From positions 835 through 64,834 of the forward strand of contig JACPKF010000007.1 in NCBI GenBank assembly GCA_016187125.1: a stretch of 64,000 bases of DNA, written 5' to 3'. Every line of letters begins with the position of its first letter. Positions within the stretch are counted from its first letter, which is position 1. Origin of the DNA: Candidatus Saccharimonadota bacterium. Its GTDB lineage: Bacteria; Patescibacteriota; Saccharimonadia; Saccharimonadales; UBA10212. The notes beneath the pieces were generated by a model. It was not told the DNA's origin, did not search any database, and saw only the letters and a list, made by a program, of their open reading frames with translations. Positions 10,919-41,595 of this stretch are shown piece by piece. The translations under genes and the position numbers were made by a program.

Positions 10919-12088
10919 ATGCTAAAAAAGAAGACTAACGATCAATCGGCTGCCAAGCCCGATAAAGTTAAAAAACCGGGGCGAACTCCAAGAATGAAAT
11001 CGTTCGACCGAGAAATGGAGCAGCTGGTTACTCGGGGCAAAAAAGAGGGCAAGATTGAGCAGCGCGATGTTTTTGAACTAATTCCAGACACTCCGGCCAA
11101 CCTTGAAGTTTTGGACCAGCTGTATAACGAGCTGGCGGAAGCCGAAATTGAACTTATAGAAGTTGTTGAACCCAGCGTTACCGAGATTAGTGATGAGTGG
11201 GAAGAAGACGAGCCGGCAGCTGTAGTAGCACCGGTCAATACCACTTATCTAGACGATGTTTCAGACGACTCGGTCCGGCTTTATCTGCGTGAAATCGGCA
11301 AAATTCCGCTTCTGACAGCCGAAGAGGAATTAGCCCTGGCCAAAAAAGTTGTTACCGGCGACAAGCGCGCCAAAGACGCCATGGCCGAGGCTAATATGCG
11401 CCTGGTGGTTTCGATTGCTAAACGCTACGTTGGCCGAGGACTGGATCTACTGGATCTTATTCAAGAGGGCAATACTGGTCTATTGCGGGCCGTCGAAAAA
11501 TTTGATCCGGACCGGGGCTTCAAGTTCAGTACTTATGCCACTTGGTGGATTCGCCAGGCTATAACTCGGGCCATTGCCGATCAAGCCCGCACCATCAGAA
11601 TTCCAGTGCACATGGTCGAGACCATTAACAAGCTGCTACGGACTCAGCGCCGCTTGACCCAAGAGCTCAACCGCGAGCCAACCAACGAAGAAATCGGCGC
11701 CGCTATGGAAATGGACGTTGATAAAGTTGAGCACATTATGAAAATCAAGCAGGATATTTCCAGTCTTGATGCCAGCGTCCGCGACGACGAAGAAGACAGC
11801 GTGCTGGGCGATTTTATAGAGGATGAAGACACTAAAACGCCTACCGAGTCAGCCTCCGAACAGTTGCTCAAAGAACAAGTTAAAAGGATTTTAGGCACAC
11901 TGACCGAGCGCGAGCAAAAAATCCTCAAGCTTCGCTTTGGACTGGAAGACGGCAAAAGCCACACGCTGGAAGAAGTTGGCCAGGAATTTAGCGTTACTCG
12001 CGAGCGCATCCGTCAAATCGAGGCTAAAGCTCTGGCCAAGTTAAGAAAACATAAGGACACTAGAAAGCTTCATGAATATCTTCAATAG
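10919..12088 (+). CDS. rpoD: RNA polymerase primary sigma factor (sigma-70 family)
   Basis: Regions 1.2-4.2 are present: [56 protein letters not shown]. Confidence 0.95.
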
Positions 12089-12173
12089 TCATAGCACAAA
12101 CCCCGCATATTTTCATGGCGTTTCGCAATCCGCCGCAGGCGGACTGCTCCACCCAGAAAATTGGCGGGGCAGG
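12089..12173 (+). repeat. 85-nt hairpin element (family F1) with core cgcaatccgccgNaggcggactgctccaccc
   Basis: Outer inverted repeat ccccgcatattttc / gaaaattggcgggg with an inner hairpin tccgcc/ggcgga. A second copy is at 14733-14808. It sits between the two rpoD 3'-end copies. Confidence 0.75.
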
Positions 12174-12206
12174 GACACCCGCAAGTTGCATGAGTATTTG
12201 CAGTAG
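12174..12206 (+). pseudogene. displaced duplicate of the rpoD 3' end ([10 protein letters not shown])
   Basis: gac acc cgc aag ttg cat gag tat ttg cag tag encodes the same 10 aa as 12056-12088. Six codons differ, all synonymously. Its TAG abuts the ATG of the next gene. Confidence 0.85.
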
Positions 12207-12776
12207 ATGAGAATTATTGGACTTGCCGGCACCAACGGTTCAGGGAAGGATAGTTTGGGCCAGATTTTGGCTGATGGTTATGGTTACATGTTTGTGTCGG
12301 TAGCTGATTTTTTAAGGGACGAGGCTAAAAAACGCGGCTTGCCGATTGAAAGGGAAGTTTTGCGGACAATCAGCGCCGAGTGGCGCCGTGAGTACGGACT
12401 GGGGGTTTTAGTTGATAGGGCAGTAGAATTATTCCAAAAATCCGGCAAGAACTATAAAGGTTTGGCAATCAGCCCGATGCGTAACGGCGGCGAGGCCGAC
12501 AGATTAAAAGAGCTAGGCGGCAGATTAGTTTGGATAGACGCTGATCCTAAAATTCGTTACGGGCGAATAACCAATCGTGCCCGTAGCACCGAAGATAAGA
12601 AAACTTATGAGCAATTTTTAGCCGAGGAACAAGCCGAAATGCAGCCCAGCGGCGACGAGGCCACCTTGAGCTTGAGCGATGTTAAAAAACGAGCCGACAT
12701 TTTTATTCAAAATGATGTTGAATCTTTGGAAGATTTCCGCCAAATCATCGACCAAAAATTAGCTCAACTTTTGTAA
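12207..12776 (+). CDS. P-loop nucleotide/nucleoside kinase-like protein (dephospho-CoA kinase / dNMP kinase-like)
   Basis: Walker A motif GLAGTNGSGKDS at the N-terminus in a small 189-aa protein. The exact substrate is not inferable. Confidence 0.55.
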   Translation: MRIIGLAGTNGSGKDSLGQILADGYGYMFVSVADFLRDEAKKRGLPIEREVLRTISAEWRREYGLGVLVDRAVELFQKSGKNYKGLAISPMRNGGEADRLKELGGRLVWIDADPKIRYGRITNRARSTEDKKTYEQFLAEEQAEMQPSGDEATLSLSDVKKRADIFIQNDVESLEDFRQIIDQKLAQLL

Positions 12777-12791
12777 TTAACAGATCAAATT

Positions 12792-12829
12792 ATAGGAATA
12801 AATTCAGCGATCGCTGAATTTATTCCTAT
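12792..12829. terminator. perfect 38-nt palindrome centred on GCGATCGC, likely terminator
   Basis: ataggaataaattcagcga|tcgctgaatttattcctat lies 16 nt after the kinase stop. Confidence 0.6.
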
Positions 12830-13091
12830 GCAGCCTATTGACGCAAGGCGGGAAAATGCTGTATAAACTGACGCATGAGTTATTTACTCAGTCAGAATCA
12901 ATTGTTTTTTAGCTCCTCACGCGGGGGCTTAGCTTCATTTTGTAAGTAAACATAACTAAATAAAGTCAATCACAAGCCCCCAACAGGGGCTTTTTTAATA
13001 TTTAAATTTAACCCGCCATCCGCCTGAGGTGGATTGCGGGCTTGGCCGCACAAACTTCCAAAGAAGTTTAGGTGGCCGAAGGGAGAAAGAA

Positions 13092-13979
13092 ATGATCGAA
13101 ACTTACCAAAATATTCCGGTATATCACGTTGGCTCCAACGGCTCATATAGTCAAATCAATGCTGAGCGCTTGTTTGCCACAACCAGAGGAATTGAGTTTG
13201 TCCCCCAGCGAACATTTGATGATATTGCCGATGCTTTGGCAGAGAACTCTCGAGCATTGGCAGTGCTTCCCATTGAAAATAATAGCTCTGGCCGTGTGCA
13301 CGAAGTATCGGATATTTTGTTCGAAAGAAGACTAATCGTAGTCGGTGCTAATTGGCTAAGGATTCCTATGCACCTAATAGGTGTAGAAGGTGCTTCGGAA
13401 GAAACTGCGCAGATTGTGGTGTCGCAAAACCAAGCTTTAAAACAATCCAAAATATATATAGATAGTATGGATTTGAAAAGAAAACGCTATGACAGTACTT
13501 CTGAAGCAGCTCAATTTGTCGCCGCGGAAAACGATCCGCGGGTTGTTTGTCTGGGTGGTTTAACATTGGCAAGAGAAGCAGGGCTGCAAGTCATAAGAGA
13601 GCATGTTGCAAATAAAGGCGAAAATAATAAGACTAAATTCTATGTTGTCCGTGGTCGGCAAGGTGATGAAGTTCCGGAAATTCCCAAACCGAATGGTGAC
13701 GATTTAATGGTAACAATGGTGGTCGGCTTGAAAGACCGCAAAGGCTCACTCGGCCACTTCTTAGTCGAACTAGAAGATTCTGACTTACGAACAACTGTAT
13801 CTAACCCAGACCCGGAAGACGATGGCAGCCATCCGGACGAAGGCGACCACCTGTTCTGGATAGATTTTCAGGCAGCAAGTTTGGACGTTAGAAGATTATT
13901 AGAAATAGCAAGAAATAGATCACACACATTTGATTTGTTAGGTGTATATAAGTTGGGCGAAGATCAATTTGCTGAATAG
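13092..13979 (+). CDS. prephenate dehydratase-like protein (PDT domain plus C-terminal regulatory-like domain)
   Basis: GSNGSYSQINAERLF ... ALAVLPIENNSSGRVHEV matches the PDT pattern (G.GS.S, P.ENS..G.V). The start was set at the ATG preceded by gaagggag. Confidence 0.65.
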   Translation: MIETYQNIPVYHVGSNGSYSQINAERLFATTRGIEFVPQRTFDDIADALAENSRALAVLPIENNSSGRVHEVSDILFERRLIVVGANWLRIPMHLIGVEGASEETAQIVVSQNQALKQSKIYIDSMDLKRKRYDSTSEAAQFVAAENDPRVVCLGGLTLAREAGLQVIREHVANKGENNKTKFYVVRGRQGDEVPEIPKPNGDDLMVTMVVGLKDRKGSLGHFLVELEDSDLRTTVSNPDPEDDGSHPDEGDHLFWIDFQAASLDVRRLLEIARNRSHTFDLLGVYKLGEDQFAE

Positions 13980-14077
13980 AGCATCTCCTTATGATGTACT
14001 TGGTATCTACAAACCCAGACAAACCTACCCCAGCGAGTAAGAGCAGTTTTTTACGACCTACATAAACCATTCTAATA

Positions 14078-14107
14078 TTCTTAAGAATAATAGAATAGGA
14101 ATAATTA
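14078..14107. repeat. copy of the ttctaatattcttaagaatattagaa palindrome family (imperfect)
   Basis: cattctaatattcttaagaataatagaata lies about 45 nt upstream of ORF 14153. Other copies are at 48498-48523, 48780-48807 and 51421-51452. Confidence 0.7.
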
Positions 14108-14152
14108 AAGCATAAGTAGTCGCCGAGAAAACCCTGGGTTTATAATTGAAAT

Positions 14153-14692
14153 ATGTCAGAGGATTACACAGGCCCACTTCAGGTAGAAGAAATTCCTTTT
14201 AACCCTTTAAACAAAACGGGTTGGGAAAAAGAAGACGGACAAATAAATGAAGTTGTGATACGAGGAGAGCGAAAGCCAGTTCATCCAACAAATAACCTTC
14301 GAATGATTTTCGGTTTCCATAAAAGGCTAATTAGTGGCGATCGTACCGATCCTTTTATGCAGGTATACAAAGGTGTATTTCAAACAAATAGGCTAGGTGA
14401 AATTTTGGAACACTTTGGTAAAAAGTTTCCTCTTCTATATGCAAGAATGAGTGAGATTAGCGAGCAACATTATCAGAACGCGCAAGATCGGAATAATGCA
14501 TTAGTGAAGCTTGGGCCCAACTCCCCAGAATATGAGACTTTTGTCAAAAAACAAGGGCGCACTGTCGAAGAAGCGGTTGAGCAAGATTACATTTTTTCCA
14601 TGGGCTATGATGGTTTAGCCGAGTCAGCGGTTGAACTTGATCCCGAATATCCAGTAGAAAATCTTCGGGTGCTCACCGGCTATAACGGCTAA
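14153..14692 (+). CDS. hypothetical protein (179 aa)
   Basis: Intact ORF. A TATAAT (14141-14146) lies 6 nt before the ATG. No motif recognised. Confidence 0.45.
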   Translation: MSEDYTGPLQVEEIPFNPLNKTGWEKEDGQINEVVIRGERKPVHPTNNLRMIFGFHKRLISGDRTDPFMQVYKGVFQTNRLGEILEHFGKKFPLLYARMSEISEQHYQNAQDRNNALVKLGPNSPEYETFVKKQGRTVEEAVEQDYIFSMGYDGLAESAVELDPEYPVENLRVLTGYNG

Positions 14693-14732
14693 AATACCTA
14701 CCTACTATCTGTCTGGCGTATAATTTTAAGTA

Positions 14733-14808
14733 ACCCGCAGATCTTTTTGGGGAGTTGCGCAATCCGCCGAAGGCGGACTGCTCCACCCTGAAAAGGTATG
14801 GGGCAAGT
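14733..14808 (+). repeat. second copy of the F1 hairpin element
   Basis: The core gcgcaatccgccgaaggcggactgctccaccc (14757-14788) and flanking inverted repeats align with 12089-12173. Confidence 0.75.
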
Positions 14809-14819
14809 GGCAGAGACTT

Positions 14820-14852
14820 ATGAGTGAAAGAAAGAAATTAGCGATTATAGAC
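14820..14852 (+). pseudogene. displaced duplicate of the polA 5' end (MSERKKLAIID)
   Basis: atg agt gaa aga aag aaa tta gcg att ata gac parallels the real start gtg agc cgt aag aaa ttg gct atc ata gac at 14953. Differences are synonymous, apart from ATG vs GTG at the start codon and one extra codon. Confidence 0.8.
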
Positions 14853-14927
14853 CCCAGCACCAAAATCTTGAAATTCTGCAATAGGGATATTCTCCCTCTT
14901 CTGCATTCAGGATTTGGTGCGGGGCAG
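14853..14927 (+). repeat. 75-nt MITE-like element (family F2), termini cccagcaccaaaatc / gatttggtgcggggcag
   Basis: Inverted termini. The first 20 nt (23 counting the preceding gac) and the last ~20 nt are near-identical to 24539-24611. The centre is variable. Confidence 0.8.
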
Positions 14928-14952
14928 GTCGCGGCTATAGAAAGTTGGCGAA

Positions 14953-17643
14953 GTGAGCCGTAAGAAATTGGCTATCATAGACGGAAAGAGCGTTTTCTAT
15001 AGAGGGTACTACGCCTTGCCGAATTTAAGTACCAAAGACGGAATTCCGACTGGTGGAGTTTATGGTTTCGCGTCTATGAGCCTGGAGCTTATTAAAAAAC
15101 TCAAACCGGATTATGTGGCCGTAGCTTGGGATAAACCCAAAACCAACATTAGAGCCCGGCTAAAAATGTATCCGGAGTATAAGGCCGGCCGCAAACCGGC
15201 GCCGCCGGATTTTTACACCCAAATCCCGATTTTGCATGAACTGCTAGAAGCCTTCGGTTGGCCACTGTATGAACTGGACGACTATGAAGCCGACGATATT
15301 ATGGGCACCTTGGCAGTCCAGGCCCGTAAAAAAAATATCGAAACCCAGCTTATAACCTCCGATCTTGACGCCCTGCAGCTGATCAACGGTCACGTCAAGG
15401 TCTATGCCCTAAAAAAAGGCTTCTCTAATATCGAAGAGTTTCATACCGAGAGTTTTGAAGCCAAATACGGCCTCAAAGCCGAGCAATTTTTGGATCTAAA
15501 ATCTCTAAAAGGTGACAGCTCCGATAATATTCCCGGCGTACCAGGCGTGGGTGAAAAAACAGCTATTGCTCTGCTTCAACAATACAAAACCCTGGACGGA
15601 GTTTACAAAAACTTGGAGTTAGTTAAAGACAGCCTACGCAAAAAACTTGAGGACGGCAAAGACTTAGCCTATTTGAGCAAGCAACTAGCTAAACTTTGGA
15701 CTAATGCGCCGCTTAAATTGAACCTGGAGGCGATGGACACCAGTAAATGTGATACCGACCGTCTGCGGAGTTTGCTGCAGGAACTGGAATTTCGCAGTTT
15801 GCTGAACAACTTGCCGGAGAATATGCGGGTTACACCCGCAGTAACAAGTAATATGCCCCAAGCAAAAAGCGGAGATAAATTAAAGCTCCAGGAACATAAA
15901 TTAATTGATTCAGACGCTAAACTGGCTGAAATCAAGTTGGCTGGCGATAAGATTTTTATTCATTCTCGAGCTGCCGGCCGGCACGGTGCCGACCCGCAGG
16001 TTTTGATTATCGGCACCGACAAAATTTCTTACACGCTTGATTTAACCAAGCTGGACCATAAAAAGGTCCAGCAAGCTATCAGCCATCAGCTAAAGGTTAG
16101 TAGTTCGGTGGTTGGCTATGACTTGAAATCTGATATTAAAGTTTTAAAAAACCTTGGTATCCAACCGCCGCCTGTGGCTCATGACGTCCTGGTAGCGGCC
16201 TTTTTGCTAAATCCCTTAATGCGAGTTCAAACTTTGACCGAACTGGCCACGGTAAATTTGGGCTACGGCGGCACGAGCTTAGAAGATTTGCCAACTGAAG
16301 ATTTTATAGAACGCTCCGCCGAGCTTATGGCAATTCTCATTAAGCTTTACCACGTCCAGCAACACGAATTTGGCGAGGCGCCAACGCTCGAGCGCTTAGC
16401 TAAACAAATCGAATGGCCGCTTATTCCGGTGTTAGCCGATATGGAATACCGCGGTATTAAACTCGACGTTAAGTATCTGAAAAATTTTTCCAAAAAAATA
16501 GAAGATTCGATTAGCGATCTGGAGCAAACCATTTATGGCCACGCCGACTACGAGTTTAATATCAGCTCGCCGGCCCAGCTAGCAGACGTACTATTTACCA
16601 AACTCAATCTTCCCAAGCAGGGAATTAAAAAAGGCAAAACCGGCTTGTCAACGGCGGCCAGCGAGCTGGAAAAATTGCGCGGCCTGCATCCGATTATTGA
16701 TTTAATTAGCCAGTACCGCGAAGTAACTAAGCTCAAAAATACCTACGTTGACGCCTTGCCGGCCTTAGTGGACGCCAGTAGCCGCATTCACACTACTTTT
16801 AATCTGACAGTTGCTCAAACCGGCCGGCTATCGAGTGCCGATCCGAATTTGCAAAATATTCCGGTCCGCACCGAGCTGGGTAAAAATATCCGCACCGCTT
16901 TTATAGCGGAGCGCGGCAATGTTTTTGTCAGTGCCGATTACAGCCAGTTCGAAATAAGGCTAGCGGCCGCCTTTTCGGGCGACCAAGATATGATTGACGC
17001 TTTTAACCAAGATATGGACATTCATGCCGAAACCGCCGCGCTGGTGTTGGGTATCCCGGTTGATAAGGTAACTAGCGAACAGCGTTATGCGGCTAAAGCC
17101 GTCAATTTTGGCATCATGTACGGCCAAGGCCCGCATGGTCTGAGTGTTGGTACGGGTATGGATTACACAGCGGCCCGGGAATTTATTGCCAGATATTTTG
17201 AAGTGCGGCCCAAACTCAAAGAATATATAGATTCGATTCGTAGGGAAGCCGAAGAGCAGGGCTTTGTAGAGACAATCCTAGGCCGCCGCCGGCCAACTCC
17301 GGACGTTAAATCTTCTAACTTCGCGGTCCGCGAGGCTGCTTATCGGGCGGCAATAAACATGCCATTGCAAGGCAGTGCCGCCGATCTCATGAAAATGGCG
17401 ATGGTAGCGGTGAACAAAGAATTTGAGAGCCGCTACCATCGCCATCCTGAGCGGAGCGATAGCAGAGTCGAGGGATGGCCTCGAATGTTACTTCAGATCC
17501 ATGACTCTATACTTGTTGAAACCCCTGAGTCGTTAACTAAACAAGTGGGCGATTTGCTTAAGGACACCATGGAAAACATCCACAAACTACCCGTGAAGTT
17601 GGCAGTAGATATTTCTGTAGGTAAAAATTGGGGCGAACTCTAG
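14953..17643 (+). CDS. polA: DNA polymerase I
   Basis: 896 aa with a 5' nuclease N-terminus, a 3'-5' exo-like domain and pol motifs (DYSQFEIRLAA, KAVNFGIMYG, QIHDS). GTG start. Confidence 0.95.
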   Translation: MSRKKLAIIDGKSVFYRGYYALPNLSTKDGIPTGGVYGFASMSLELIKKLKPDYVAVAWDKPKTNIRARLKMYPEYKAGRKPAPPDFYTQIPILHELLEAFGWPLYELDDYEADDIMGTLAVQARKKNIETQLITSDLDALQLINGHVKVYALKKGFSNIEEFHTESFEAKYGLKAEQFLDLKSLKGDSSDNIPGVPGVGEKTAIALLQQYKTLDGVYKNLELVKDSLRKKLEDGKDLAYLSKQLAKLWTNAPLKLNLEAMDTSKCDTDRLRSLLQELEFRSLLNNLPENMRVTPAVTSNMPQAKSGDKLKLQEHKLIDSDAKLAEIKLAGDKIFIHSRAAGRHGADPQVLIIGTDKISYTLDLTKLDHKKVQQAISHQLKVSSSVVGYDLKSDIKVLKNLGIQPPPVAHDVLVAAFLLNPLMRVQTLTELATVNLGYGGTSLEDLPTEDFIERSAELMAILIKLYHVQQHEFGEAPTLERLAKQIEWPLIPVLADMEYRGIKLDVKYLKNFSKKIEDSISDLEQTIYGHADYEFNISSPAQLADVLFTKLNLPKQGIKKGKTGLSTAASELEKLRGLHPIIDLISQYREVTKLKNTYVDALPALVDASSRIHTTFNLTVAQTGRLSSADPNLQNIPVRTELGKNIRTAFIAERGNVFVSADYSQFEIRLAAAFSGDQDMIDAFNQDMDIHAETAALVLGIPVDKVTSEQRYAAKAVNFGIMYGQGPHGLSVGTGMDYTAAREFIARYFEVRPKLKEYIDSIRREAEEQGFVETILGRRRPTPDVKSSNFAVREAAYRAAINMPLQGSAADLMKMAMVAVNKEFESRYHRHPERSDSRVEGWPRMLLQIHDSILVETPESLTKQVGDLLKDTMENIHKLPVKLAVDISVGKNWGEL
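17442..17478 (+). repeat. in-frame hairpin insert (family F4, CCTGAGC...GTCGARGG) inside polA
   Basis: ccatcctgagcggagcgatagcagagtcgagggatgg is translated as HPERSDSRVEGW just upstream of the QIHDS motif. Related units are at 24445-24508 and 62650-62790. Confidence 0.65.
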
Positions 17644-17646: not shown

Positions 17647-18285
17647 ATGAATAACTCGATTCCTGATCAAAGAGATTTTTGGAATAGAAGACACGGTAAT
17701 GAGCTAGAGGAAGACAGAGACGTTAATCCATTCGCTATCCTTGCTGAGCAAAGTTTTCAACCGCATTCTAAAGTTTTAGATTTGGGCTGTGGAAGGGCAA
17801 GCGATGCGGTTTATTTTGCGAGTAAAGGCCACAGTGTTTTAGCAACTGACTTTTCAGAGACAGTAATCGATCATAACAAAAAAACTTTGAGTAATTCTGG
17901 AGTTGATTTTCAAGTTTTTGATTTACGCCAGTCGCTTCCAGCAGGATCGGAAAGCTTCGACGCCGTTTATTCTAGCCTATCTCTTCATTACTTTGGCGAT
18001 AAAATTACCAAAGGAATCTTTAGTGAGATTCACCGAGTACTCAAGACTGGCGCGACTTTTGCTTTTAGTTGCAAGTCTGTCAACGATCAGCACTACGGCG
18101 AAGGAAGCGAAATAGAAAAGAATGTTTTCATATCCCCTAAAGGCTACCTTAGACATTTCTTTTCTGAGAGTTATGTAAAAGAACTTTTAGCTGATGGCTT
18201 CGAAATTGATCTGCTTGAAGAAGTGCAAGAGGATTATGTGGGAGAGGATTCACATATTATCCACTGTATTGCCCGGAAGTTATAA
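17647..18285 (+). CDS. class I SAM-dependent methyltransferase (cassette between two polA 3' ends)
   Basis: Motif I is VLDLGCGRASDAVYFASKGHSVLATDFS. The ATG lies 3 nt after the polA stop. Confidence 0.85.
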   Translation: MNNSIPDQRDFWNRRHGNELEEDRDVNPFAILAEQSFQPHSKVLDLGCGRASDAVYFASKGHSVLATDFSETVIDHNKKTLSNSGVDFQVFDLRQSLPAGSESFDAVYSSLSLHYFGDKITKGIFSEIHRVLKTGATFAFSCKSVNDQHYGEGSEIEKNVFISPKGYLRHFFSESYVKELLADGFEIDLLEEVQEDYVGEDSHIIHCIARKL

Positions 18286-18291: not shown

Positions 18292-18339
18292 AAACTCAAA
18301 GTCGATATCTCCACCGGCAAAAACTGGGGCGAACTATAA
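18292..18339 (+). pseudogene. displaced duplicate of the polA 3' end (KLKVDISTGKNWGEL*)
   Basis: Parallels 17596-17643 (KLAVDISVGKNWGEL*) with 9 synonymous and 2 replacement codon differences. Confidence 0.85.
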
Positions 18340-18545
18340 ATATCTTCCATTTTGTTTCGGCAAAACGGAAGCCAAAAACCGACGGACATTCGAAAACACT
18401 ATCGAATTTACTAACGCTGTCTGCCGCGCCAAAACAACGCAAGCGGTCCCTCACTTTCTAGGGCAGAGGTTCGGGATTGAGTTTCGGCTGGACTCGCCAG
18501 CCAGCTACCAAATTCATCGGTTTTCTCGAGTCCGGAGACAGAAAG
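18340..18545 (+). repeat. copy C of the A/B/C/D/E structured repeat family
   Basis: ctgccgcgccaaaacaacgcaagcggtccctc ... gagtttcggctggactcgccagccagctaccaaattcatcggttttctcgagtccgg aligns with copies A and B. Confidence 0.65.
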
Positions 18546-18659
18546 ATTCTTTTGTTAGGACGGTTTAACACTAAATCCAGAGAAGATAATCTCTTCGATC
18601 TCTCAGGGTATAATTTGATTAAGGAGCCAGGTATAAATAACGACTTCATTTTGCCGGAA

Positions 18660-19646
18660 ATGCGATCAAGATTTTCTGAAATCCGTTTGGGATTTGAACA
18701 ACTTAAGATTATTGGCCTAGAAACTGGCGATCGTTTTTTTGAAACATATGGCCCAGGTAATTTAATTGAAGGAATGGATCGTCCATACGAAAGATTTCAC
18801 GACTACGAGCTGCTGCTAGTAATTATTCAGGGTATTGACCCAGATAAATACCTGCACATACATAAAGGTACACCTTTTTACTTTTTGGCTTGGTTGGCAT
18901 TTGCAATCAGGGATTACGAAAAGGCGGTATTTTATATGGACTCTGCGCTATCGGAAGACAAAAGAAAAAGCCCAACTGAGCAATTTTCTTCTTGGATACA
19001 AAACCCTGCTGGCAAATTTTTCTGCCTTAATCCAAAAGATCACACTGCGAGGATCATTACACAGCAGTTAAAGGACATACTAGAAAGTCAGTTTACGAGA
19101 TTCAATACAATTTCTAACTTGCCCACTCTGCTTAATGTTGATAGTTGGGTAGGAAATTTCGTACATCCTATGATAAAGGCGGAGAAGTTTCCTTTCGTAA
19201 CTTCAATTTATAGCTATCTTTTAGAGTTTAAAGACCGGCACCAGATGTTAAACCTCAAACCATTACTTGATGGATCTACCGAACCATATACAGTGCATCT
19301 TTTTAAGGGAGGTTTAATATTTGAATCTCTAATGAAACACTATTACGAATCTAGAGCCAAAAAACTCAGTGAATGCCTAAAGAATGAAGATTTTAAAAGG
19401 GACTTCTCTTTGAAATTAGTTGATACTTCAGCTAACAGCCTACGAGAAATACTTGATAAGATTATTGATAATACTGCAGCAACTAGCTTCAATACAACAT
19501 CAAAGCTTCGAAATACTACGGGGCACAAGCTAGTCTGGGATAAAGTCTTTAATCTGCCAGAAAACTACCAGAAACTGTTTGAGCAAGAACTTAACGCAAT
19601 TTTTTTCGTTATCGGGAAGCAAATTGAGAAAGGCCTAGCTATATAA
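18660..19646 (+). CDS. hypothetical protein with a C-terminal HEPN-like RNxxxH motif (AbiD/Abi_2-like signature)
   Basis: KLRNTTGHKLVWD resembles the hRNxxAHHxxLWN signature of Abi_2 HEPN proteins. The start is uncertain: the ORF extends to 18477 but overlaps repeat C. Confidence 0.45.
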   Translation: MRSRFSEIRLGFEQLKIIGLETGDRFFETYGPGNLIEGMDRPYERFHDYELLLVIIQGIDPDKYLHIHKGTPFYFLAWLAFAIRDYEKAVFYMDSALSEDKRKSPTEQFSSWIQNPAGKFFCLNPKDHTARIITQQLKDILESQFTRFNTISNLPTLLNVDSWVGNFVHPMIKAEKFPFVTSIYSYLLEFKDRHQMLNLKPLLDGSTEPYTVHLFKGGLIFESLMKHYYESRAKKLSECLKNEDFKRDFSLKLVDTSANSLREILDKIIDNTAATSFNTTSKLRNTTGHKLVWDKVFNLPENYQKLFEQELNAIFFVIGKQIEKGLAI

Positions 19647-19704
19647 AACTTACAGGATTTTGAATAAATCCAGCGAAAGTATGACCATTGGAGGAATATT
19701 CTCT

Positions 19705-20632: not shown

Positions 20633-20639
20633 ATCAATT

Positions 20640-29917: not shown

Positions 29918-29993
29918 AAGAAATTATCCTCTTGCGTACTCATACTCCTTATGGTACTGTTTGAGCATAAACTACAAAACTAAAAAATAAAAA

Positions 29994-36992: not shown

Positions 36993-37859
36993 ATGACCAA
37001 ACAAGAAGAACTTGCAAAAATTAAGGCTGATATTGTGAAGCAAAAAATTTGCCCAGACCTGGCCGCCGGTGCCACGCAACTGGTTTTTGGCGATGGTGAT
37101 CCGGACGCCGAGCTAGTCTTTATTGGTGAAGCGCCCGGTAAAAACGAAGATGAGCAAGGTCTGCCATTTGTCGGCGCGGCCGGTAAGTTTTTAAATGAGA
37201 TGCTAGCACTTATAGGGCTAAAACGTGAGGACGTATACATTACCAACATTGTTAAATATCGCCCGCCGGAAAATCGTGACCCATTGCCTGATGAAAAAAC
37301 GGTCTTTTTGCCGTTTTTGCATGCTCAGCTGGCAGTGATTAAGCCCAAAATTGTGGTAACGCTAGGCCGTCACAGCATGGAGTGCTTTTTGCCGGATCTG
37401 AAAATTAGTGTCTGTCACGGCCAAGCCAAAAGGATCAGAGTGGAGAATGGAGAGGGCAGAGTGAAGAAAGTCGTGGCAGGTGGCCAAGTGGCGAGTACGA
37501 TGCAAGGCGCAGGCGAGCAGCGGACTGAAACGTATGGAAAATACGGTGAAGGAGCAGCGCAGCCTGCAACACAGCAGCGTGCCGCAAGTGACAACAGTGT
37601 CGGTGGCTCTGCCGACGACCAGGTTGTTACGTCCTTGGTCATCCTGCCGTTGTTTCATCCGGCGGCGGCCTTATATAACGGCGGAATGCGCCAAACATTA
37701 ATAGACGATTTTATGAAGATACCGCGTATTTTAGCTAAACTTGAGCAGACGCCTAACTCTTTTGATAAACAAAAAACGCGGGAGGTGCAAGTTTCTGTCG
37801 TGTCTCAGCCAGAAGTTAAAAAAGCTGGCCCGAGCCAACTTCAATTAGGTATTAAGTGA
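36993..37859 (+). CDS. family-4 uracil-DNA glycosylase with a ~65-aa internal insert
   Basis: GEAPGKNEDEQGLPFVGAAGKFL and HPAAALYN are family-4 UDG motifs. It is 288 aa against about 190-210 aa typical. Confidence 0.85.
   Translation: MTKQEELAKIKADIVKQKICPDLAAGATQLVFGDGDPDAELVFIGEAPGKNEDEQGLPFVGAAGKFLNEMLALIGLKREDVYITNIVKYRPPENRDPLPDEKTVFLPFLHAQLAVIKPKIVVTLGRHSMECFLPDLKISVCHGQAKRIRVENGEGRVKKVVAGGQVASTMQGAGEQRTETYGKYGEGAAQPATQQRAASDNSVGGSADDQVVTSLVILPLFHPAAALYNGGMRQTLIDDFMKIPRILAKLEQTPNSFDKQKTREVQVSVVSQPEVKKAGPSQLQLGIK
37436..37638 (+). repeat. in-frame translated insertion element (family F3) inside the UDG gene
   Basis: gagtacgatgcaaggcgcaggcgagcagcggactgaaacgtatggaaaatacggtgaaggagcagcgcag is homologous to the fpg insert. 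The peptide is QGAGEQRTETYGKYGEGAAQ. Confidence 0.75.
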
Positions 37860-38098: not shown

Positions 38099-40186
38099 AT
38101 GGATGACAAAGCAAAAAATCTAGACAGTCAACCATCCAATCAGCCAAATAGTAGAACCGCGCCCGGTCGTAACTTGGTTACTTCAACCGGCCGAAATGTC
38201 TCTAGAGGGGCGGCCATCCGGGCCCAAAAACAAGCGGTTAACGATGCTAATCGGGTAGCTAGTCAATATCTTGATGCAGCCAATAAACATCCGCTGGCTA
38301 GCGGAGACCGGCCAAGACGTGCCAACGTTATTGATGATAATCCGCGGCTAAAAATTATTGGCTTGGGTGGCATGGATGGTGGCGGTTCTAAAAATATGCT
38401 GGTGATCGAATACCAAAATGATGCAATTGTGATTGATTGCGGCAATGATCTAGGCGTTGATCTGCCAGGCATTAACTACGGTATCGCTGATACGACTTAC
38501 CTCGATCAAATAAAAAATAAGCTAAGAGGTTTTGTCATAACCCATGGGCATCTGGACCACATGGGCGGCCTACCTCACATTTTACCCAAATATAACGTGC
38601 CGGTTTATGGCGGCCGTTTTACCATCGGACGGGTGGAGGAAATCTTTCAAAACTTTGGCCTGCCAATGCCCAAGGGCTTTGAGCTTAAAACTGTCATCAT
38701 GAACGAAACAACCCACGAACGTCTTAAAATTGGCGTGTTTTTCGTGGAATTGGTGCGAGTAACCCATGCCATCCCAGGCAGCACCATGGTAGTGGTTGAT
38801 ACACCGGTGGGTAGAATTATAAATACCGGTGACTTTCGCCTAGATCCCAATCCTTTGGATCACGAAAGAACGGATACGGCACGCATTGAGGAACTGTCTC
38901 GTGAAAATGTGCTGCTACTGATGAGCGAAAGTACTACCACCGAAACCCTTGGCCGTACGCTATCGGAAAGCCAAATCGAGAAAAGCTTTATAGACATTAT
39001 GGACCAGGCGCCCGGACGGATTTTCGTGGCTATTTTCTCGACCAATGTCAATCGCATCCAGATGATAGTTAACGCTGCTGTGCACCACGGGCGTAAAGTG
39101 GCGATTGATGGACGCAGCATGATTAGCACGCTGGAAATGGCCGTAAAAAACGGCTTTATGAAGATTCCCAAGGGTACATTTGTACCGATAGCTTCAGTGT
39201 CTAATCTCAAAGATGATCAAGTTGTGGTAGTCAGTACTGGAGCCCAAGGCGAACCGAACTCGGCGCTTCAACGCATGAGTACGGGGGATCATAAATACGT
39301 TGCATTAAAAGAACAAGACACCGTCATTCTGTCTAGCCGGGCTATTCCGTACACCGGCAATGACGCCTTAATACGCTCTATGGTTGATGAGCTCTTTAAA
39401 AAAGGAGTACACGTTTTTCGTCACGAAACCTACGAGCTGGACGGCGGTGGGCCACTGCACGTTTCCGGGCACGGCGGTCAAGAAGAATATCGGGATATGA
39501 TTAAAATGGTCAAACCAAAATTCTTTTTGCCCATTTACGGCGACTATACCGCCAAAAAATACCATATAGATATTGCTTTGGAGGAGGGAATTCCGCGGGT
39601 CAATACACTGAACGTTGACAACGGCCAAGTCATAACGCTTGCTAAAGACAAAATGCAGCTTGGTGGCGAGGTGCCGCATGGCACCATCTTGGTAGATCAA
39701 ACCGGGGCTGTGGTTAGCACGGTGGTGGTTAAAGACCGGGTCCTACTGGCCGAAGAGGGCGTAGTGGCGGTGGTGCTGACTATCGACAAAAAAACCGGCC
39801 AGCTTCTAACTAGCCCAGATATAATCAGCCGCGGCTTTATCTACATGAAAGAGAATGAAGAGCTAATGAATGCTTTTCGCGCCGAACTGCGCCGAGCGGT
39901 TAGCCAGCGCTTTAAGCGGGTTGATCTGGACCGCTTTAAGGCCGAGCTAAAAGACTACGTCACCCACTTTTTGTACGAGCAAACCCAACGCAGCCCAATT
40001 GTCATCCCAGTAGTTAACGTTATTGGCGGCCGGGCAGAAAAAGCCAATAATAATCTGCACGGTGCCGGCCAAGTTGCGCCCAGCGGTGAAACTCCCAAGA
40101 CGCCTGAAGAGATTGCTTTAGAACAGCAGCGCCGATTTGCACAGATGAGGCAACGACTGCTCAACCAAGACGCCCGTGTGGACTAA
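38099..40186 (+). CDS. rnj: ribonuclease J
   Basis: Metallo-beta-lactamase HGHLDHMGG, beta-CASP layout and the conserved HVSGHGGQEE. There is a ~90-aa polar N-terminal extension. Confidence 0.9.
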   Translation: MDDKAKNLDSQPSNQPNSRTAPGRNLVTSTGRNVSRGAAIRAQKQAVNDANRVASQYLDAANKHPLASGDRPRRANVIDDNPRLKIIGLGGMDGGGSKNMLVIEYQNDAIVIDCGNDLGVDLPGINYGIADTTYLDQIKNKLRGFVITHGHLDHMGGLPHILPKYNVPVYGGRFTIGRVEEIFQNFGLPMPKGFELKTVIMNETTHERLKIGVFFVELVRVTHAIPGSTMVVVDTPVGRIINTGDFRLDPNPLDHERTDTARIEELSRENVLLLMSESTTTETLGRTLSESQIEKSFIDIMDQAPGRIFVAIFSTNVNRIQMIVNAAVHHGRKVAIDGRSMISTLEMAVKNGFMKIPKGTFVPIASVSNLKDDQVVVVSTGAQGEPNSALQRMSTGDHKYVALKEQDTVILSSRAIPYTGNDALIRSMVDELFKKGVHVFRHETYELDGGGPLHVSGHGGQEEYRDMIKMVKPKFFLPIYGDYTAKKYHIDIALEEGIPRVNTLNVDNGQVITLAKDKMQLGGEVPHGTILVDQTGAVVSTVVVKDRVLLAEEGVVAVVLTIDKKTGQLLTSPDIISRGFIYMKENEELMNAFRAELRRAVSQRFKRVDLDRFKAELKDYVTHFLYEQTQRSPIVIPVVNVIGGRAEKANNNLHGAGQVAPSGETPKTPEEIALEQQRRFAQMRQRLLNQDARVD

Positions 40187-40354
40187 TATTTCCGGACGCT
40201 GCCTCGACTCGATATAGCTGTTGATTAAAAACAGGCTCGCTCGGGAACTCCTCGGAATTCATCCACTGGATAAATTCTTCGTCAAACAGCCCTCGCACCC
40301 AAGGACGCCTCTTTTCAACAACATCTACTCGGGCCTCGCCAGATGCCCGGAAAT
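40187..40354 (+). repeat. copy E (diverged) of the A/B/C/D/E repeat family, starting immediately after the rnj stop
   Basis: Begins atttccggacgctg and ends cgccagatgcccggaaat (inverted ends). It contains the aattcatcc module. Confidence 0.55.
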
Positions 40355-40475
40355 ATTAGTCCATCCTCCAAAAAATCGAAGCCAAGGACAGACTGTTTTA
40401 CGCTCGCCCGGCTTCAGGTTCGCTGCGCAGGCCTAGAATTCAAACCGTTGGCCACTCTATTGAAGGTTTAGAAAA

Positions 40476-40504
40476 TTGACAAAAGCACATAAATTTGCTA
40501 CAGT
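40476..40504 (+). promoter_or_regulatory. cassette-internal promoter TTGACA-17-TACAGT
   Basis: aaaaTTGACAaaagcacataaatttgcTACAGT is followed by the SD aaaagga and the ATG at 40531. Confidence 0.55.
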
Positions 40505-40530
40505 ATATCTATATTATAAAAAGGATACGT

Positions 40531-41019
40531 ATGACAACTCACGATCATCCACCTTCACCAGAACAACCAGCCACACCTAATTTACTTGGCCTTTTTGAAA
40601 GAGTTGGAATGCTAGTACAAGCGCAGACTGATGAGGACCGAGGTCTTTATCAATCAGACCCTCCTATTCATTATAAGGAGTTCACTCCTGATATAGAAGA
40701 TGGCGAAGACCGAGATCCGGATGTTACTAGCATCACTTGGCCGCTTAAACCTGAATATGATAAAGCCGACCGGTTTCTTCCTAGTGGAGAACTAATGGTA
40801 GGAACAGATGAAAAGGAAATTGTCTATACATTCGGTCGGGTAATCGCTGAAGATTTGGACCAACCAAATACACCAAAAATAAAGAAACGCCAAAAGCTTT
40901 ATAATGTTGCAAATCCCGAATGGGAATCGGAGAGAGAGTTGAGCGACGATGAAGTTGAAGAACTACAAGAAATTCAGAAAGTTCTAGCGGAAATCGAACA
41001 AAAATTAGCAGTAGACTAA
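40531..41019 (+). CDS. hypothetical acidic protein (162 aa), cassette 1 cargo
   Basis: Intact ORF with its own promoter and SD. No motif recognised. Confidence 0.5.
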   Translation: MTTHDHPPSPEQPATPNLLGLFERVGMLVQAQTDEDRGLYQSDPPIHYKEFTPDIEDGEDRDPDVTSITWPLKPEYDKADRFLPSGELMVGTDEKEIVYTFGRVIAEDLDQPNTPKIKKRQKLYNVANPEWESERELSDDEVEELQEIQKVLAEIEQKLAVD

Positions 41020-41020
41020 T

Positions 41021-41050
41021 CTTCTCAACCAAGACGCCCGGGTTGATTAG
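41021..41050 (+). pseudogene. second copy of the rnj 3' end (LLNQDARVD*)
   Basis: ctt ctc aac caa gac gcc cgg gtt gat tag versus the real ctg ctc aac caa gac gcc cgt gtg gac taa. All differences are silent. Confidence 0.85.
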
Positions 41051-41283
41051 CCCTGTTTGCGGTTCTTAAGGAATTCTTCGGTTGTTAGTCCAATATCTTT
41101 ACAAATCTGTCTGAGCAAAATTGGTGAGATATCCCGAGATCCATGAACCGGCACAGTTGTTGCCCGTCCGTCTGGATGCCTGAATTGTTGATGCGAACCG
41201 CGCTGGCGCGCCAAGCTAAAGCCCAGCCTTTCCAAAATGGCGATTACCCCTTTTGGCTTTAAGACAGGCAGCTTAACAGCCAT
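41047..41283 (-). CDS. hicA: HicA-family mRNA interferase toxin
   Basis: The pattern ILERLGFSLARQRGSHQQFRHPDGRATTVPVHGSRDISPILLRQICKDIG is the HicA (YcfA) pattern. Confidence 0.8.
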   Translation of the reverse strand: MAVKLPVLKPKGVIAILERLGFSLARQRGSHQQFRHPDGRATTVPVHGSRDISPILLRQICKDIGLTTEEFLKNRKQG

Positions 41284-41284
41284 T

Positions 41285-41503
41285 TTAGACTGCGACTAAT
41301 TGCGTACCGACGAAATATGATTCTGGCTTCTGGTTATTATCATCTTCGAGCACTAAAGCCACTACCTCTTTGAGATTTTTGTTCAATTCCTCCAGCGTTT
41401 CGCCCTGAGTGTGGGCGCCGGGCAAATCAGGCACATAGGCTACGTACAGACCAGTAGCTACATCCTTTTCAATAATTGCGGTATAGGCTTGCGCGGATTT
41501 CAT
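41285..41503 (-). CDS. hicB: HicB-like antitoxin (UPF0150 fold)
   Basis: YTAIIEKDVATGLYVAYVPDLPGAHTQGETLEELNKNLKEVVAL is the HicB N-domain pattern. It lies 1 nt upstream of hicA. TGtTATAAT is 7 nt before the ATG. Confidence 0.75.
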   Translation of the reverse strand: MKSAQAYTAIIEKDVATGLYVAYVPDLPGAHTQGETLEELNKNLKEVVALVLEDDNNQKPESYFVGTQLVAV

Positions 41504-41538
41504 AATAATAATTATAACACGTTTCGGCTGTGTTCGGG

Positions 41539-41595
41539 CGCCGCTTCGCCCAGATGCGCCAACGTCTGCTTAACCAAGACGCTCGCGTCGACTAG
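41539..41595 (+). pseudogene. third copy of the rnj 3' end (RRFAQMRQRLLNQDARVD*)
   Basis: Of 19 codons parallel to 40130-40186, 10 differ and all are silent (the stop changes TAA to TAG). Confidence 0.88.

Follow-up and report, generated by a model that had tools for sequence, protein, structure and literature searches.

In a 64-kb stretch of DNA (the window) from a metagenome-assembled genome of a Saccharibacteria (TM7) species, a tiny-genome bacterium, small accessory genes and hairpin repeats adjoin essential genes and are bracketed by differently spelled copies of the gene ends. The genes concerned are rpoD, polA, rnj, and one encoding a HAD hydrolase, with their first or last 8 to 19 codons duplicated; between the copies lies a cassette that consists of a MITE, an accessory gene, or a toxin-antitoxin pair. 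One copy continues the gene body, so that the protein stays whole, and the displaced copy retains the original junction with the neighboring gene, together with the ribosome-binding region or overlapping start of that neighbor. We put at about 55% the probability that these cassettes are the footprints of homology-dependent insertion and exchange at highly conserved gene termini in a naturally transformable host; the machinery is most likely ordinary homologous recombination rather than a dedicated integrase. Comparisons with related genomes suggest that duplicated-end cassettes are the way in which distant lineages swap extra DNA.

Duplicated gene ends in the window

A sequence-only reading of this DNA had described seven junctions at five loci, and all seven are present, at the positions listed below. 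At the 3′ end of rpoD, the two tails are separated by a hairpin, a second copy of which lies upstream of polA:

12056-12088, plus strand: rpoD tail A, the functional last 10 codons and stop
12099-12173, plus strand: MITE-like hairpin D7-1, AACCCCGCA...GGCGGGGCAGG, its right end abutting tail B
12174-12206, plus strand: rpoD tail B, the displaced copy, its TAG followed directly by the ATG of a kinase gene
14732-14808, plus strand: second D7 hairpin copy, between a hypothetical ORF (14153-14692) and polA head A

The rpoD tails encode the same 10 residues and differ at 9 of 33 nt, with no identical run longer than 5 nt. D7-1 has a folding dG of −38.5 kcal/mol (z −4.6). In the related genome L088, the rpoD 3′ end is an empty site with a tight junction. 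As proposed, the displaced copy has preserved the tight ancestral junction both here (TAGATG at 12204-12209) and at the HAD hydrolase gene, where the ATG at 24512 overlaps the upstream stop at 24520-24522. That gene and polA have duplicated 5′ ends, or heads, around TIR hairpin MITEs:

14820-14852, plus strand: polA head A, the displaced start ATG and 10 codons, MSERKKLAIID
14850-14928, plus strand: TIR hairpin MITE of subfamily 1, GACCCCAGCACCAAAATCTTGA...TCAGGATTTGGTGCGGGGCAGG, with a close copy in a 5′UTR of L192
14820-14963, plus strand: polA leader ORF of 47 codons, from the displaced ATG through the MITE, ending at a TAA (14961-14963) 9 nt into polA
14953-14982, plus strand: polA head B, the functional GTG start and 9 codons, VSRKKLAIID
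24512-24538, plus strand: HAD hydrolase head A, MSIEAVIFD, with a displaced ATG that overlaps the upstream stop codon
24536-24611, plus strand: TIR hairpin MITE of subfamily 2, its nearest copy at the uvrA 5′ end of L190
24512-24637, plus strand: HAD leader ORF of 41 codons, running through the MITE to a TAA (24635-24637) just past the GTG start of the HAD gene
24630-24653, plus strand: HAD head B, the functional GTG start, VIKAVIFD

The HAD pair is the weakest of the duplicated pairs. At the 3′ end of polA, the cargo is a methyltransferase (MTase) gene:

17605-17643, plus strand: polA tail A, the functional last 12 codons and stop, VDISVGKNWGEL
17647-18285, plus strand: cargo, a class I SAM-dependent methyltransferase gene
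18301-18339, plus strand: polA tail B, the displaced copy, VDISTGKNWGEL and stop, in the MTase frame, 5 codons past the MTase stop

These tails differ at 10 of 39 nt, with seven silent changes and one V/T change. The 3′ end of rnj carries an array of three tails with two cargoes:

40130-40186, plus strand: rnj tail copy 1, the functional last 18 codons and stop
40179-40363, plus strand: 185-nt hairpin, its perfect 17-nt arms taking in the rnj stop codon
40531-41019, plus strand: cargo 1, a hypothetical ORF of 162 aa, without matches in Pfam or PHROG
41021-41050, plus strand: rnj tail copy 2, LLNQDARVD and stop, the stop overlapping that of hicA on the opposite strand
41047-41503, minus strand: cargo 2, a hicA and hicB toxin-antitoxin pair
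41539-41595, plus strand: rnj tail copy 3, 18 codons and stop, followed by terminator-like hairpins

The 185-nt inverted repeat was considered as inserted cargo and rejected, since its conserved position in L094 marks it as a structure of the rnj 3′ end. The first bases after the rnj stop are also shared by L095 and L103.

Across the duplicated ends, 35 of the 66 codons compared differed silently and 1 of the 66 changed the amino acid, whereas a random single-base change in them has only a 21% chance of being silent; simulated random changes never gave an all-silent outcome. On recount, the differences claimed for rnj (10 of 19 codons between copies 1 and 3) and rpoD (6 codons) were all silent. 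We thus concur that the copies are not fresh target-site duplications, their divergence being almost purely silent. Repeated 7-residue peptides lying near each other numbered 62, a count that takes in repeats unrelated to the gene-end copies, against 0 or 1 in mononucleotide-shuffled windows.

Cassettes shared with other genomes

The MTase cassette is found in other genomes, and there it is far more similar to that of the window than the polA gene beside it. At the DNA level, the MTase gene is 95.5% identical to the window in L088 (95% at third codon positions), 88% in L092, and 81% in L090. By contrast, polA as a whole is ~74% identical in L088 (73.6% for the overall alignment of polA plus MTase), the last 207 nt of polA are 69% identical in L092, and the polA 3′ end is 71 to 75% identical in L090. 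The left edge of high identity falls in the final ~10 to 20 nt of polA, so that the distal part of tail A (AATTGGGG..CTCTAG) travels with the cassette. In both L092 and L090, a further polA tail follows the MTase gene, and past that tail the sequences are no longer related. Of the 39 nt of tail B in L092, 36 agree with tail B of the window, and the similarity ends at the stop codon. The discordance between MTase and polA identity, together with the common second tail, shows that a unit bounded by two tails has been exchanged horizontally, and it bears out the earlier proposal that the inserted units are mobile. Both limits of the similarity between MTase cassettes of different genomes fall within the conserved segment of the polA tail, where homologous exchange would place them. 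Tails A and B of L090 have identical proximal 29-nt segments, which fits a fresh duplication at insertion, or gene conversion, and counts against our preferred reading.

Mosaicism is also seen inside genes. One near-identical patch lies within polA and another in argS (6591-6730), both genes being otherwise ~70% identical between the genomes, which shows frequent short-tract recombination between lineages. The polA patch is as follows:

17384-17483, plus strand: patch inside polA that contains an in-frame HPERSDSRVEGW hairpin element, with windows up to 100% identical to L088

The same architecture recurs with other contents. The polA 3′ tail is duplicated in L013 (two cassettes), L017, and L038, the rnj 3′ tail in L093, L099, and L172, and the 5′ end of truB in L039; the same hicA/hicB cassette lies between two rnj tails in L093. 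Alternative cargo, which the sequence-only reading had proposed to look for in related genomes, was therefore found at both the polA and rnj 3′ ends. In one and the same scan, there were four tail duplications in 80 other Saccharibacteria polA loci (1.44 Mb) and four in the 64-kb window, making the density of junctions per kilobase ~20 times higher in the window; a generic host process alone leaves this excess unexplained. The DNA of the polA tail is almost invariant across 78 species, the gene that follows polA differs nearly everywhere, and the distance from polA to the HAD gene ranges from 125 to 7923 nt. The nearest PolA relative is 77% identical; the relatives compared were not at strain level, and for most junctions we saw among them neither a true empty/filled polymorphism nor recombination breakpoints.

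Mechanism and competing explanations

In Saccharibacteria, linear DNA is imported and then integrated through homologous recombination, a process that depends on comEC (PMC10633639), and we infer that RecA and competence supply the machinery here. Because such gene ends are conserved across lineages, a duplicated terminus could act as a portable homology arm. Host RecA-type recombination would then move the unit made up of distal tail A, cargo, and tail B into any genome with that gene, or replace a unit already there, either by a double crossover on transforming linear DNA or by a single crossover of a circularised cassette. The two copies would come from different lineages, and they would differ only silently because each had served as a working gene end in its own lineage. 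The first duplication most likely arose by an illegitimate join inside the terminal codons of the recipient, with the conserved gene as the homologous anchor (homology-facilitated illegitimate recombination [HFIR]); at the three MITE junctions, the join lies exactly at the MITE end.

The joints at MITE ends, at these three junctions and at uvrA of L190, look like the work of an element-specific enzyme and not like a random illegitimate join. A single MITE family, with termini ACCCC(A)GCA...GCGGGGCAGG common to the D7 and TIR hairpins, occupies the three window junctions, and a fourth copy splits the uvrA 5′ end in another metagenome (L190) with the same architecture, such that a dedicated mobilising enzyme for this family is possible. 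A transposase or nuclease encoded elsewhere might insert the element 10 to 13 codons inside gene termini, the replacement terminus being either a co-mobilised flank (through one-ended or aberrant excision and then homology-guided integration) or an added rescue; the gene cassettes at the polA and rnj 3′ ends would then be a separate, recombination-based phenomenon. The displaced copy directly abuts one MITE end in four of four cases (rpoD 3′, polA 5′, HAD 5′, and uvrA 5′ of L190), with the opposite MITE end 10 to 28 nt from the functional terminus; the L192 copy, 6 nt upstream of a start codon and without a duplication, is the expected donor state; and each of the two subfamilies is common to the window genome and other metagenomes. 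Against this, the duplications are bounded by a start or stop codon, vary in length, and have diverged almost only at silent sites, so that they are not mechanical target-site duplications, and only six copies of the family are known. Furthermore, domain searches of the ~50 window ORFs revealed no recognisable transposase, integrase, or recombinase, in line with what the sequence-only reading had said of recombinases. We therefore regard MITE-specific mobilisation as possible but doubtful.

The absence of such a domain from the window also bears on a model in which a tyrosine or serine recombinase acting in trans integrates the micro-cassettes site-specifically; the gene-end copies would then represent attL and attR, with a replacement end on every micro-cassette. 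This topology is that of gene-end-integrating elements, the arrays in which every cassette ends in the same tail (L013 and rnj) resemble integron arrays, and the 11-nt identical runs present between the polA copies and between the rnj copies could be a core. The rpoD copies, however, with their short identical runs, offer no crossover core, and the targets, at least six in number (rpoD, polA 5′, polA 3′, HAD, rnj, and uvrA or truB elsewhere), lack any common sequence. In addition, an 85-nt cargo is too small for arm sites, and ordinary homologous exchange explains the identity boundaries. We consider this explanation unlikely. Thus, of the trans-mobilised micro-cassettes proposed earlier, horizontal mobility and recurrence with other cargo stand, but integration in the attL/attR manner of an integrase is not supported.

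It is very improbable that the copies are old in-place duplications lacking any mobility, with the displaced copy retained only for the translation signals (ribosome-binding site or stop/start overlap) of the neighboring gene. Such retention would account for the repeated polA tails of L013, L017, L038, and L092, into which the cargo ORFs run in frame and which overlap the start of the next gene in the ATGA or GTGA manner, and for the window leader ORFs, which end just beyond the new start codons. Selection on translation signals would not, however, keep the identity of 19 codons with purely silent change. After polA tail B, the window has ATAA and a hairpin rather than a gene. The rnj tail B of L172 abuts a convergent gene, so that a downstream ribosome-binding site cannot be the general reason for retention, a point that weighs against our preferred reading too. 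The far greater likeness of the cassettes than of their flanks between genomes contradicts this reading.

Contigs of Logan single-run assemblies were 100% identical to the window over 8305-12821 (three runs), 12800-17418 (up to five runs), and 40291-42768 (three or four runs). The rpoD and polA 5′ junctions and rnj copy 2 to copy 3 therefore recur in separate runs; polA tail B, rnj copy 1, and the HAD 5′ junction lie outside these matches. Although the window comes from a metagenome and the per-run contigs end near repeats (12800-12821, 17418, and ~40291), an assembly artefact joining two coexisting strains in tandem at strain-variable sites is scarcely credible, given these three to five separate runs, the equal architecture in unrelated assemblies from other studies (L013, L017, L038, L090 to L093, L172, and L190), and the real reads that joins of cargo to copy require.

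Relation to known systems

The hairpins resemble MITEs, REPIN-like elements, and the palindromic elements of Rickettsia, which sit inside coding regions: they are imperfect hairpins of 75 to 90 nt with conserved inverted termini, occur in several copies and subfamilies common to different genomes, and are tolerated in or beside coding sequence. Unlike those elements, they are flanked not by a short fixed target-site duplication but by a repeated, silently diverged head or tail of 8 to 13 codons specific to each gene. In Allomyces atp6, mobile endonuclease elements at the 3′ end of the mitochondrial gene carry a duplicated foreign C-terminal coding piece; there too the gene has acquired a foreign terminus by fusion, with its own pushed downstream as a pseudo-end, but those elements encode a homing endonuclease, whereas our cassettes have no nuclease gene. 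Among integrative elements that insert at a gene end and bring a replacement for it are phage 21 and e14 in icd, dusA-specific islands, SXT in prfC, and tRNA and tmRNA islands. As in our cassettes, two end copies flank the insert and one of them, a foreign, silently diverged surrogate, keeps the gene intact; here, in contrast, there is no integrase and no common core, the cargo is 85 to 830 nt, and many targets lie within 30 kb.

Integration through a single homologous gene-end segment also duplicates that segment, as in Campbell-type integration of lacZ-end plasmids in E. coli (PMC3240628). The direct duplication of a gene end around an insert, without a site-specific enzyme, is the same, but the segments here are 24 to 57 nt rather than 109 to 950 bp, and no circular intermediate was seen. 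HFIR has been proposed for displacement arrays, namely, the T6SS effector-immunity arrays of Vibrio cholerae and orphan rhs/cdiA ends (PMC5361080). In those arrays, as here, the conserved upstream gene is the anchor, new DNA enters beside it, the old end is displaced downstream and kept, and serial events build arrays (rnj copies 1 to 3; L013). The displaced piece here is only the last 8 to 19 codons of a housekeeping gene rather than a toxin domain and its immunity gene, and the joint is often at a MITE end.

The minimal mobile elements of Neisseria are cassette regions between conserved genes that are exchanged by transformation and homologous recombination (PMC3082526, PMC1538595). They share with the cassettes described here variable, lineage-specific content at a fixed place beside conserved genes (as in the polA-HAD interval), the lack of a recombinase or insertion sequence, a naturally competent host, and cassettes that are more alike between genomes than their flanks. 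In our case, by contrast, a silently diverged copy of the terminus brackets the cassette, such that one gene provides both arms, exchange occurs across lineages with only ~70 to 75% flank identity, and 5′ ends are used as well.

Gene ends duplicated around small inserts

The sequence-only reading had claimed that several inserts in this window are bracketed by duplicated ends of their host genes, and every duplication that it listed is present. Tail A and head B denote the copy joined to the gene body, and tail B and head A denote the displaced copy by the neighboring gene.

Duplicated gene termini in the window
12056-12088 and 12174-12206: rpoD 3' end, same 10-residue peptide in both copies
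14820-14852 and 14953-14982: polA 5' end, MSERKKLAIID and VSRKKLAIID
17605-17643 and 18301-18339: polA 3' end, VDISVGKNWGEL and VDISTGKNWGEL, each followed by a stop codon
24512-24538 and 24630-24653: HAD gene 5' end, MSIEAVIFD and VIKAVIFD
40130-40186, 41021-41050 and 41539-41595: rnj 3' end, RRFAQMRQRLLNQDARVD in copies 1 and 3 and LLNQDARVD in copy 2, each followed by a stop codon

Over 66 aligned codons, 43 of 198 nt differed, with 35 codons changed silently and a single amino acid change. A random single-base change in these codons would be silent in only 21% of cases, and none of 20,000 trials of random changes at the observed density gave an all-silent outcome. Because the divergence is almost purely silent, each copy must once have been a working gene end in some lineage. 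Furthermore, 62 nearby repeated 7-residue peptides were observed (a count that includes some unrelated repeats) versus 0 to 1 in shuffled sequence. The weakest pair is that at the HAD 5' end, in which five residues are identical, one position differs (E/K) and there is an indel. The longest identical run between the rpoD copies is 5 nt, and the polA 3' and rnj copies share 11-nt runs.

Direct repeats of the target gene end thus flank each insert, and one of the two copies is a surrogate. The rpoD copies are separated by an 85-nt gap containing a 75-nt hairpin, and the cargo at the polA and HAD 5' ends consists of ~80-nt hairpins with inverted termini. At the polA 3' end, the cargo is a gene for a SAM-dependent methyltransferase (MTase; 17647-18285), the protein product of which has no exact sequence on record, and at rnj it is a 162-amino-acid ORFan together with a hicAB toxin-antitoxin pair.

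A strain-chimeric join could in principle generate such duplications. Logan single-run contigs (SRR12113383, -384, -385, -420, and -424) matched the window at 100% identity over 8305-12821, which spans the rpoD junction, over 12800-17418, which spans the polA 5' junction, and over 40291-42768, which spans rnj copy 2, hicAB and copy 3; polA tail B, rnj copy 1 and the HAD junction fell outside the contigs compared. Since the same architecture also occurs in unrelated assemblies, as described below, an assembly artifact is very unlikely.

No integrase, transposase or resolvase domain was found in Pfam searches of ~50 window ORFs or in PHROGs searches of 10 ORFans, bearing out the claim that the window holds no recombinase. 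FtsK is present among the ORFs, and those at 60778-63862 are putative PilB/PilT-like ATPases, assigned from a Walker-A motif (GPTGSGKS) alone. A tRNA/tmRNA scan found no tRNA gene in the window, and Rfam gave no family at gathering score across the window and nothing relevant in E-value mode over 18300-18600; together, these scans ruled out tRNA- or tmRNA-type att sites and known ribozymes.

Cassettes at the polA and rnj 3' ends of relatives

We compared the window with the best 80 polA loci of GTDB species, almost all of them from Saccharibacteria. The PolA of the window is 100% identical to an NCBI protein of a Candidatus Saccharibacteria MAG; the closest other PolA is 77% identical to that of the window, and the closest Rnj is 87 to 88% identical. 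Strain-level relatives with empty sites were looked for and none was found; locus L088 (GCA_016187175.1; PolA 75% identical) is only a distant empty-site reference, for the rpoD 3' and polA 5' sites. Across 1.44 Mb from polA loci of other Saccharibacteria, C-terminal tails were repeated downstream in only four loci, three of them at the polA 3' end itself (L013, L017, and L038) plus one further case (L057). The same scan found four tail repeats in the 64 kb of the window, a 20-fold excess.

The polA 3' end emerged as a hot spot. Its tail DNA (GGCAAAAACTGGGGCGAACTNTGA) is near-invariant across 78 loci, the gene 3' of polA is different in nearly all of them and often overlaps the polA stop codon, and the distance from polA to the conserved HAD gene varies from 125 to 7,923 nt. 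In the window, this interval is 7 kb and is edged by the polA 3' and HAD 5' duplications. Between polA tail B and an aldo-keto reductase gene, which lies close to polA in relatives, there is a low-GC island (18340-22030; GC content, 0.36 to 0.41) with four ORFans (18477-19646, 19705-20496, 20640-21257, and 21356-21958) that have no Pfam or PHROG match.

In L013, which has two cassettes 3' of polA, and in L017 and L038, every cargo ORF has the repeated tail as its in-frame end (NWGEL and stop), and the next gene opens by an ATGA or GTGA overlap. Because of this in-frame ending, the cargo proteins of L013 and L038 (the latter at 7560-8130) carry a PolA-derived C terminus. The L013 cargo (12600-13740) comprises a ~190-amino-acid protein and a second, possibly NUDIX-like ORF.

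Among 80 JGI metagenome rnj loci, tail duplications were found in three, with cargo that varies among them and the window: L093 has the order rnj-tail-hicAB-tail, L099 has two tail copies, and L172 carries a 335-amino-acid membrane protein, its tail B adjoining a convergent purH gene. A truB 5' duplication around ~100 nt was found in L039. What looked like HAD 5' duplications at L031 and L047 proved in each to be two complete HAD paralogues on either side of a methyltransferase, and most other peptide repeats in the comparison loci were tandem sigma factor paralogues and repeat proteins.

For the MTase cassette, L088 has the same junction (polA-CTCTAG-CTT-ATG-MTase), and its MTase DNA is 95.5% identical to that of the window (95% at third positions), versus 73.6% for the whole polA-plus-MTase alignment; high identity begins inside the last ~10 to 20 nt of polA. 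The same cassette is present in L092 (88%) and L090/L091 (81%), versus 69 to 75% for the adjacent polA 3' end, and in these loci a second polA tail again lies 3' of it. Tail B of L092 equals that of the window at 36 of 39 nt and ends in the ATGA start of an aldo-keto reductase gene; past the tail B stop codon, similarity between genomes is lost. In the window, tail B is similar to functional tails from the nearest relatives (35/39 nt), and tail A is nearest to tail A of the MTase-bearing locus L092. In L090, the proximal 29 bases of tails A and B are identical. Likewise, the hicAB cassette at rnj is 82.6% identical to that of L093, versus 76% for rnj. The identity boundaries fall in the conserved tail DNA. 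Because cassette and flanks are discordant in identity, these alignments show that the tail-bounded unit moves between lineages.

Near-identical patches between the window and L088 also occur within genes that are otherwise ~70% identical, namely, argS (6591-6730) and polA (17384-17483). The argS patch, in the 3' part of the gene, is ~97 to 100% identical versus 73% for the whole gene, and the last 35 nt have diverged again, mostly silently; it is one more recombination patch located at a gene terminus. Between its patch and the tail, polA is most similar to L089, a third lineage. Diverged lineages therefore exchange short tracts frequently here.

A hairpin family at the junctions and other repeats

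Four hairpins of one family lie in the window, sharing the termini ACCCC(A)GCA...GCGGGGCAGG.

Hairpins and leader ORFs
12099-12173 and 14732-14808: two copies of D7, a MITE-like hairpin
14850-14928: TIR hairpin, subfamily 1
24536-24611: TIR hairpin, subfamily 2
14820-14963: 47-codon leader ORF opened by the displaced polA start
24512-24637: 41-codon leader ORF opened by the displaced HAD start

These are short, noncoding, multicopy elements with terminal inverted repeats and strong hairpins, as expected of MITEs. Searching 1.84 billion proteins with a profile built from the two leader peptides added two copies, in L190 and L192. In L190, the 5' end of uvrA is split by the element in the same manner (MAEKIVIQGAREH, the hairpin, 11 nt, and then MSEYITIQGAREHNLKN), and the leader stop codon overlaps the new uvrA ATG; the L192 copy lies 6 nt 5' of a start codon without a clear gene start duplication. 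In the four duplicated cases, one MITE end directly adjoins the displaced copy and the other lies 10 to 28 nt from the functional terminus. The joins come after GAC or CAC beside the MITE end ACCCC. Both leader ORFs of the window run through the MITE and terminate at a TAA a short way into the new gene, which suggests that the new starts may be coupled to them by termination-reinitiation.

Neither a fixed-length target site duplication nor a related autonomous transposon was found, the window ORFs including no transposase; the repeats flanking the MITEs are diverged, gene-specific heads or tails of 24 to 39 nt, limited by a start or stop codon. No true copies of the hairpin cores were found in 172 fetched loci or in IMG/VR, where 12 matches to an 18-mer of the core were unrelated phage coding sequence. 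A promoter/terminator scan ruled out the D7 and TIR hairpins as intrinsic terminators, there being no 3' T-run. A 185-nt element with 17-nt perfect arms 3' of rnj was rejected as an inserted MITE because its presence at the same place in L094 marks it as an rnj 3' structure.

Other repeats were noted in the window. A ~190-nt noncoding element forming one long imperfect hairpin is present in three copies (18340-18560, 29716-29936, and 1775-1995), one directly 3' of polA tail B; RNAalifold gives 62 pairs, 21 with compensatory changes, and Rfam has no match. A terminator-like hairpin family (GAATAAATTCAGCGATCGCTGAATTTATTC) occurs at 1535-1574, 12770-12829 and 41624-41684, including 3' of a kinase gene and of rnj tail copy 3, and the per-run assemblies break at its 12.8-kb copy. 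The AT-rich perfect palindrome TTCTAATATTCTTAAGAATATTAGAA, with five intergenic copies (14067-14100, 48495-48528, 48778-48811, 51421-51454, and 59929-59962), is a candidate operator or bidirectional terminator. Two short similar palindromes, CCACCGACTCCTGTCGGTGG (7334-7354) and CCGCCAACTCCTGTTGGCGG (7409-7429), lie 75 nt apart in a minus-strand ORF (6871-7530).

Some repeats are coding. A 98-nt repeat (27124-27221 and 37493-37590; 77% identical) lies in the same codon phase in two unrelated DNA repair genes, an Fpg-like ORF (26684-27796) and a uracil-DNA glycosylase ORF (36993-37859), and encodes a common ~33-amino-acid segment (including QGKVEQRTKPYMKYGEGVAQ and QGAGEQRTETYGKYGEGAAQ); its appearance is that of a mobile insertion that keeps the reading frame. 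A small hairpin element encodes PE(R/H)S.S(R/G)VEG in frame in the polA thumb/loop region (window 17384-17483; L088 10430-10530), and related motifs are found in mini-ORFs lying between polA tails (L017 12640-12715; L090 1220-1320) and at the 3' end of a phosphoribosyltransferase gene (window 24440-24510). The peptide VEPQAIL occurs twice in frame (28453-28473 and 28978-28998) in a holA-like ORF (28333-29247), with seven nucleotide differences, all silent.

Possible routes of insertion and comparison with known systems

We favor homology-dependent insertion and exchange of cassettes by host homologous recombination, with homology-facilitated illegitimate recombination (HFIR) producing the first duplication, at a probability of roughly 0.55. 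Host recombination acting on DNA gained by competence would be the simplest machinery; cultivated Saccharibacteria take up linear DNA and recombine it homologously in a comEC-dependent manner (PMC10633639). A tail-bracketed cassette would pair through gene body and tail A at one end and through tail B at the opposite end, so that the tail parts facing the cargo would be donor DNA and the outer ones recipient DNA. Alternatively, a single crossover of a circularized cassette, an event known to duplicate a gene end segment (PMC3240628), would give the same product. The first duplication at each site would be a nonhomologous join inside the terminal codons, for which HFIR, proposed for displacement arrays in Vibrio (PMC5361080), would fit, with conserved genes as plausible anchors; it would explain why the rpoD copies need no shared core. 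Because only joins that duplicate the terminus would keep both the essential gene and the neighbor's translation signals intact, the observed products would be favored in a genome of overlapping genes.

Homology-driven exchange accounts poorly for three features: the 20-fold excess in the window, the four joins exactly at the end of one MITE family, and the 29 identical proximal bases of the L090 tails. For this reason, we keep some weight on a mechanism specific to the MITE, although we consider it unlikely, and on a recombinase acting in trans, which is quite unlikely given that the window has no integrase domain and the rpoD copies no identical core. A further reading, also quite improbable, is that the hairpins are self-rescuing insertion elements, a natural counterpart of "home-and-rescue" gene drive designs, that would enter the first or last 10 to 13 codons of conserved genes (rpoD, polA, HAD, and uvrA) and bring a recoded terminus and translation signals, so that the gene stays functional; the nuclease or transposase would be encoded elsewhere, and the polA 3' and rnj 3' gene cassettes would follow the same route. 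A dedicated mechanism behind the MITE association, if real, would make this a new type of self-rescuing mobile element.

The genomes of Saccharibacteria and other CPR bacteria are tiny and densely packed, and stop codons overlap start codons in them; to our knowledge, it is poorly understood how accessory genes can be acquired in such genomes while essential operons stay intact. The pattern suggests a simple, enzyme-free solution in which the duplicated conserved end of an essential gene serves as a homology arm across distant lineages, a safeguard of that gene, and a carrier of the neighbor's translation signals. Silently diverged terminal duplications also offer a sequence signature for genome-wide searches by which gene flow among uncultivated lineages can be mapped, and the terminus sites mark natural locations at which genetic tools could be integrated into transformable Saccharibacteria.

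In the literature on Saccharibacteria, we found no prior account of this MITE family or of cassettes bracketed by gene termini, and we likewise found none of terminus duplication linked to translational coupling. In topology, the closest known systems are integrative elements that target gene ends, with which the window shares a repeat-bracketed insert carrying a surrogate end. However, such elements need a tyrosine or serine recombinase in or near the element, and none is among the window ORFs; they also need an identical attL/attR core, whereas the rpoD copies share at most 5 nt in a row, although the polA 3' and rnj copies do have 11-nt runs in common. What the sequence-only reading inferred of surrogate ends from other lineages and of mobile microcassettes without a local recombinase therefore stands, but its attL/attR integrase mechanism does not. 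Integron cassettes combine an attC palindrome with intI and attI, whereas the repeat unit here is the coding tail of the host gene and differs at each locus; the window has no IntI-like ORF and no Rfam matches. In function, the closest system is the minimal mobile element of Neisseria: a fixed site holds differing cassettes (the polA-HAD interval and the rnj 3' cargo), and cassettes appear to be exchanged horizontally through conserved flanks (MTase, 95.5% versus ~74% for polA, with boundaries at the tails). The closest mechanistic precedents are HFIR displacement arrays and Campbell-type single crossovers. We classify the window pattern as a variant of the known exchange of cassettes by recombination, and there is a real chance of its MITE component being something more specific.
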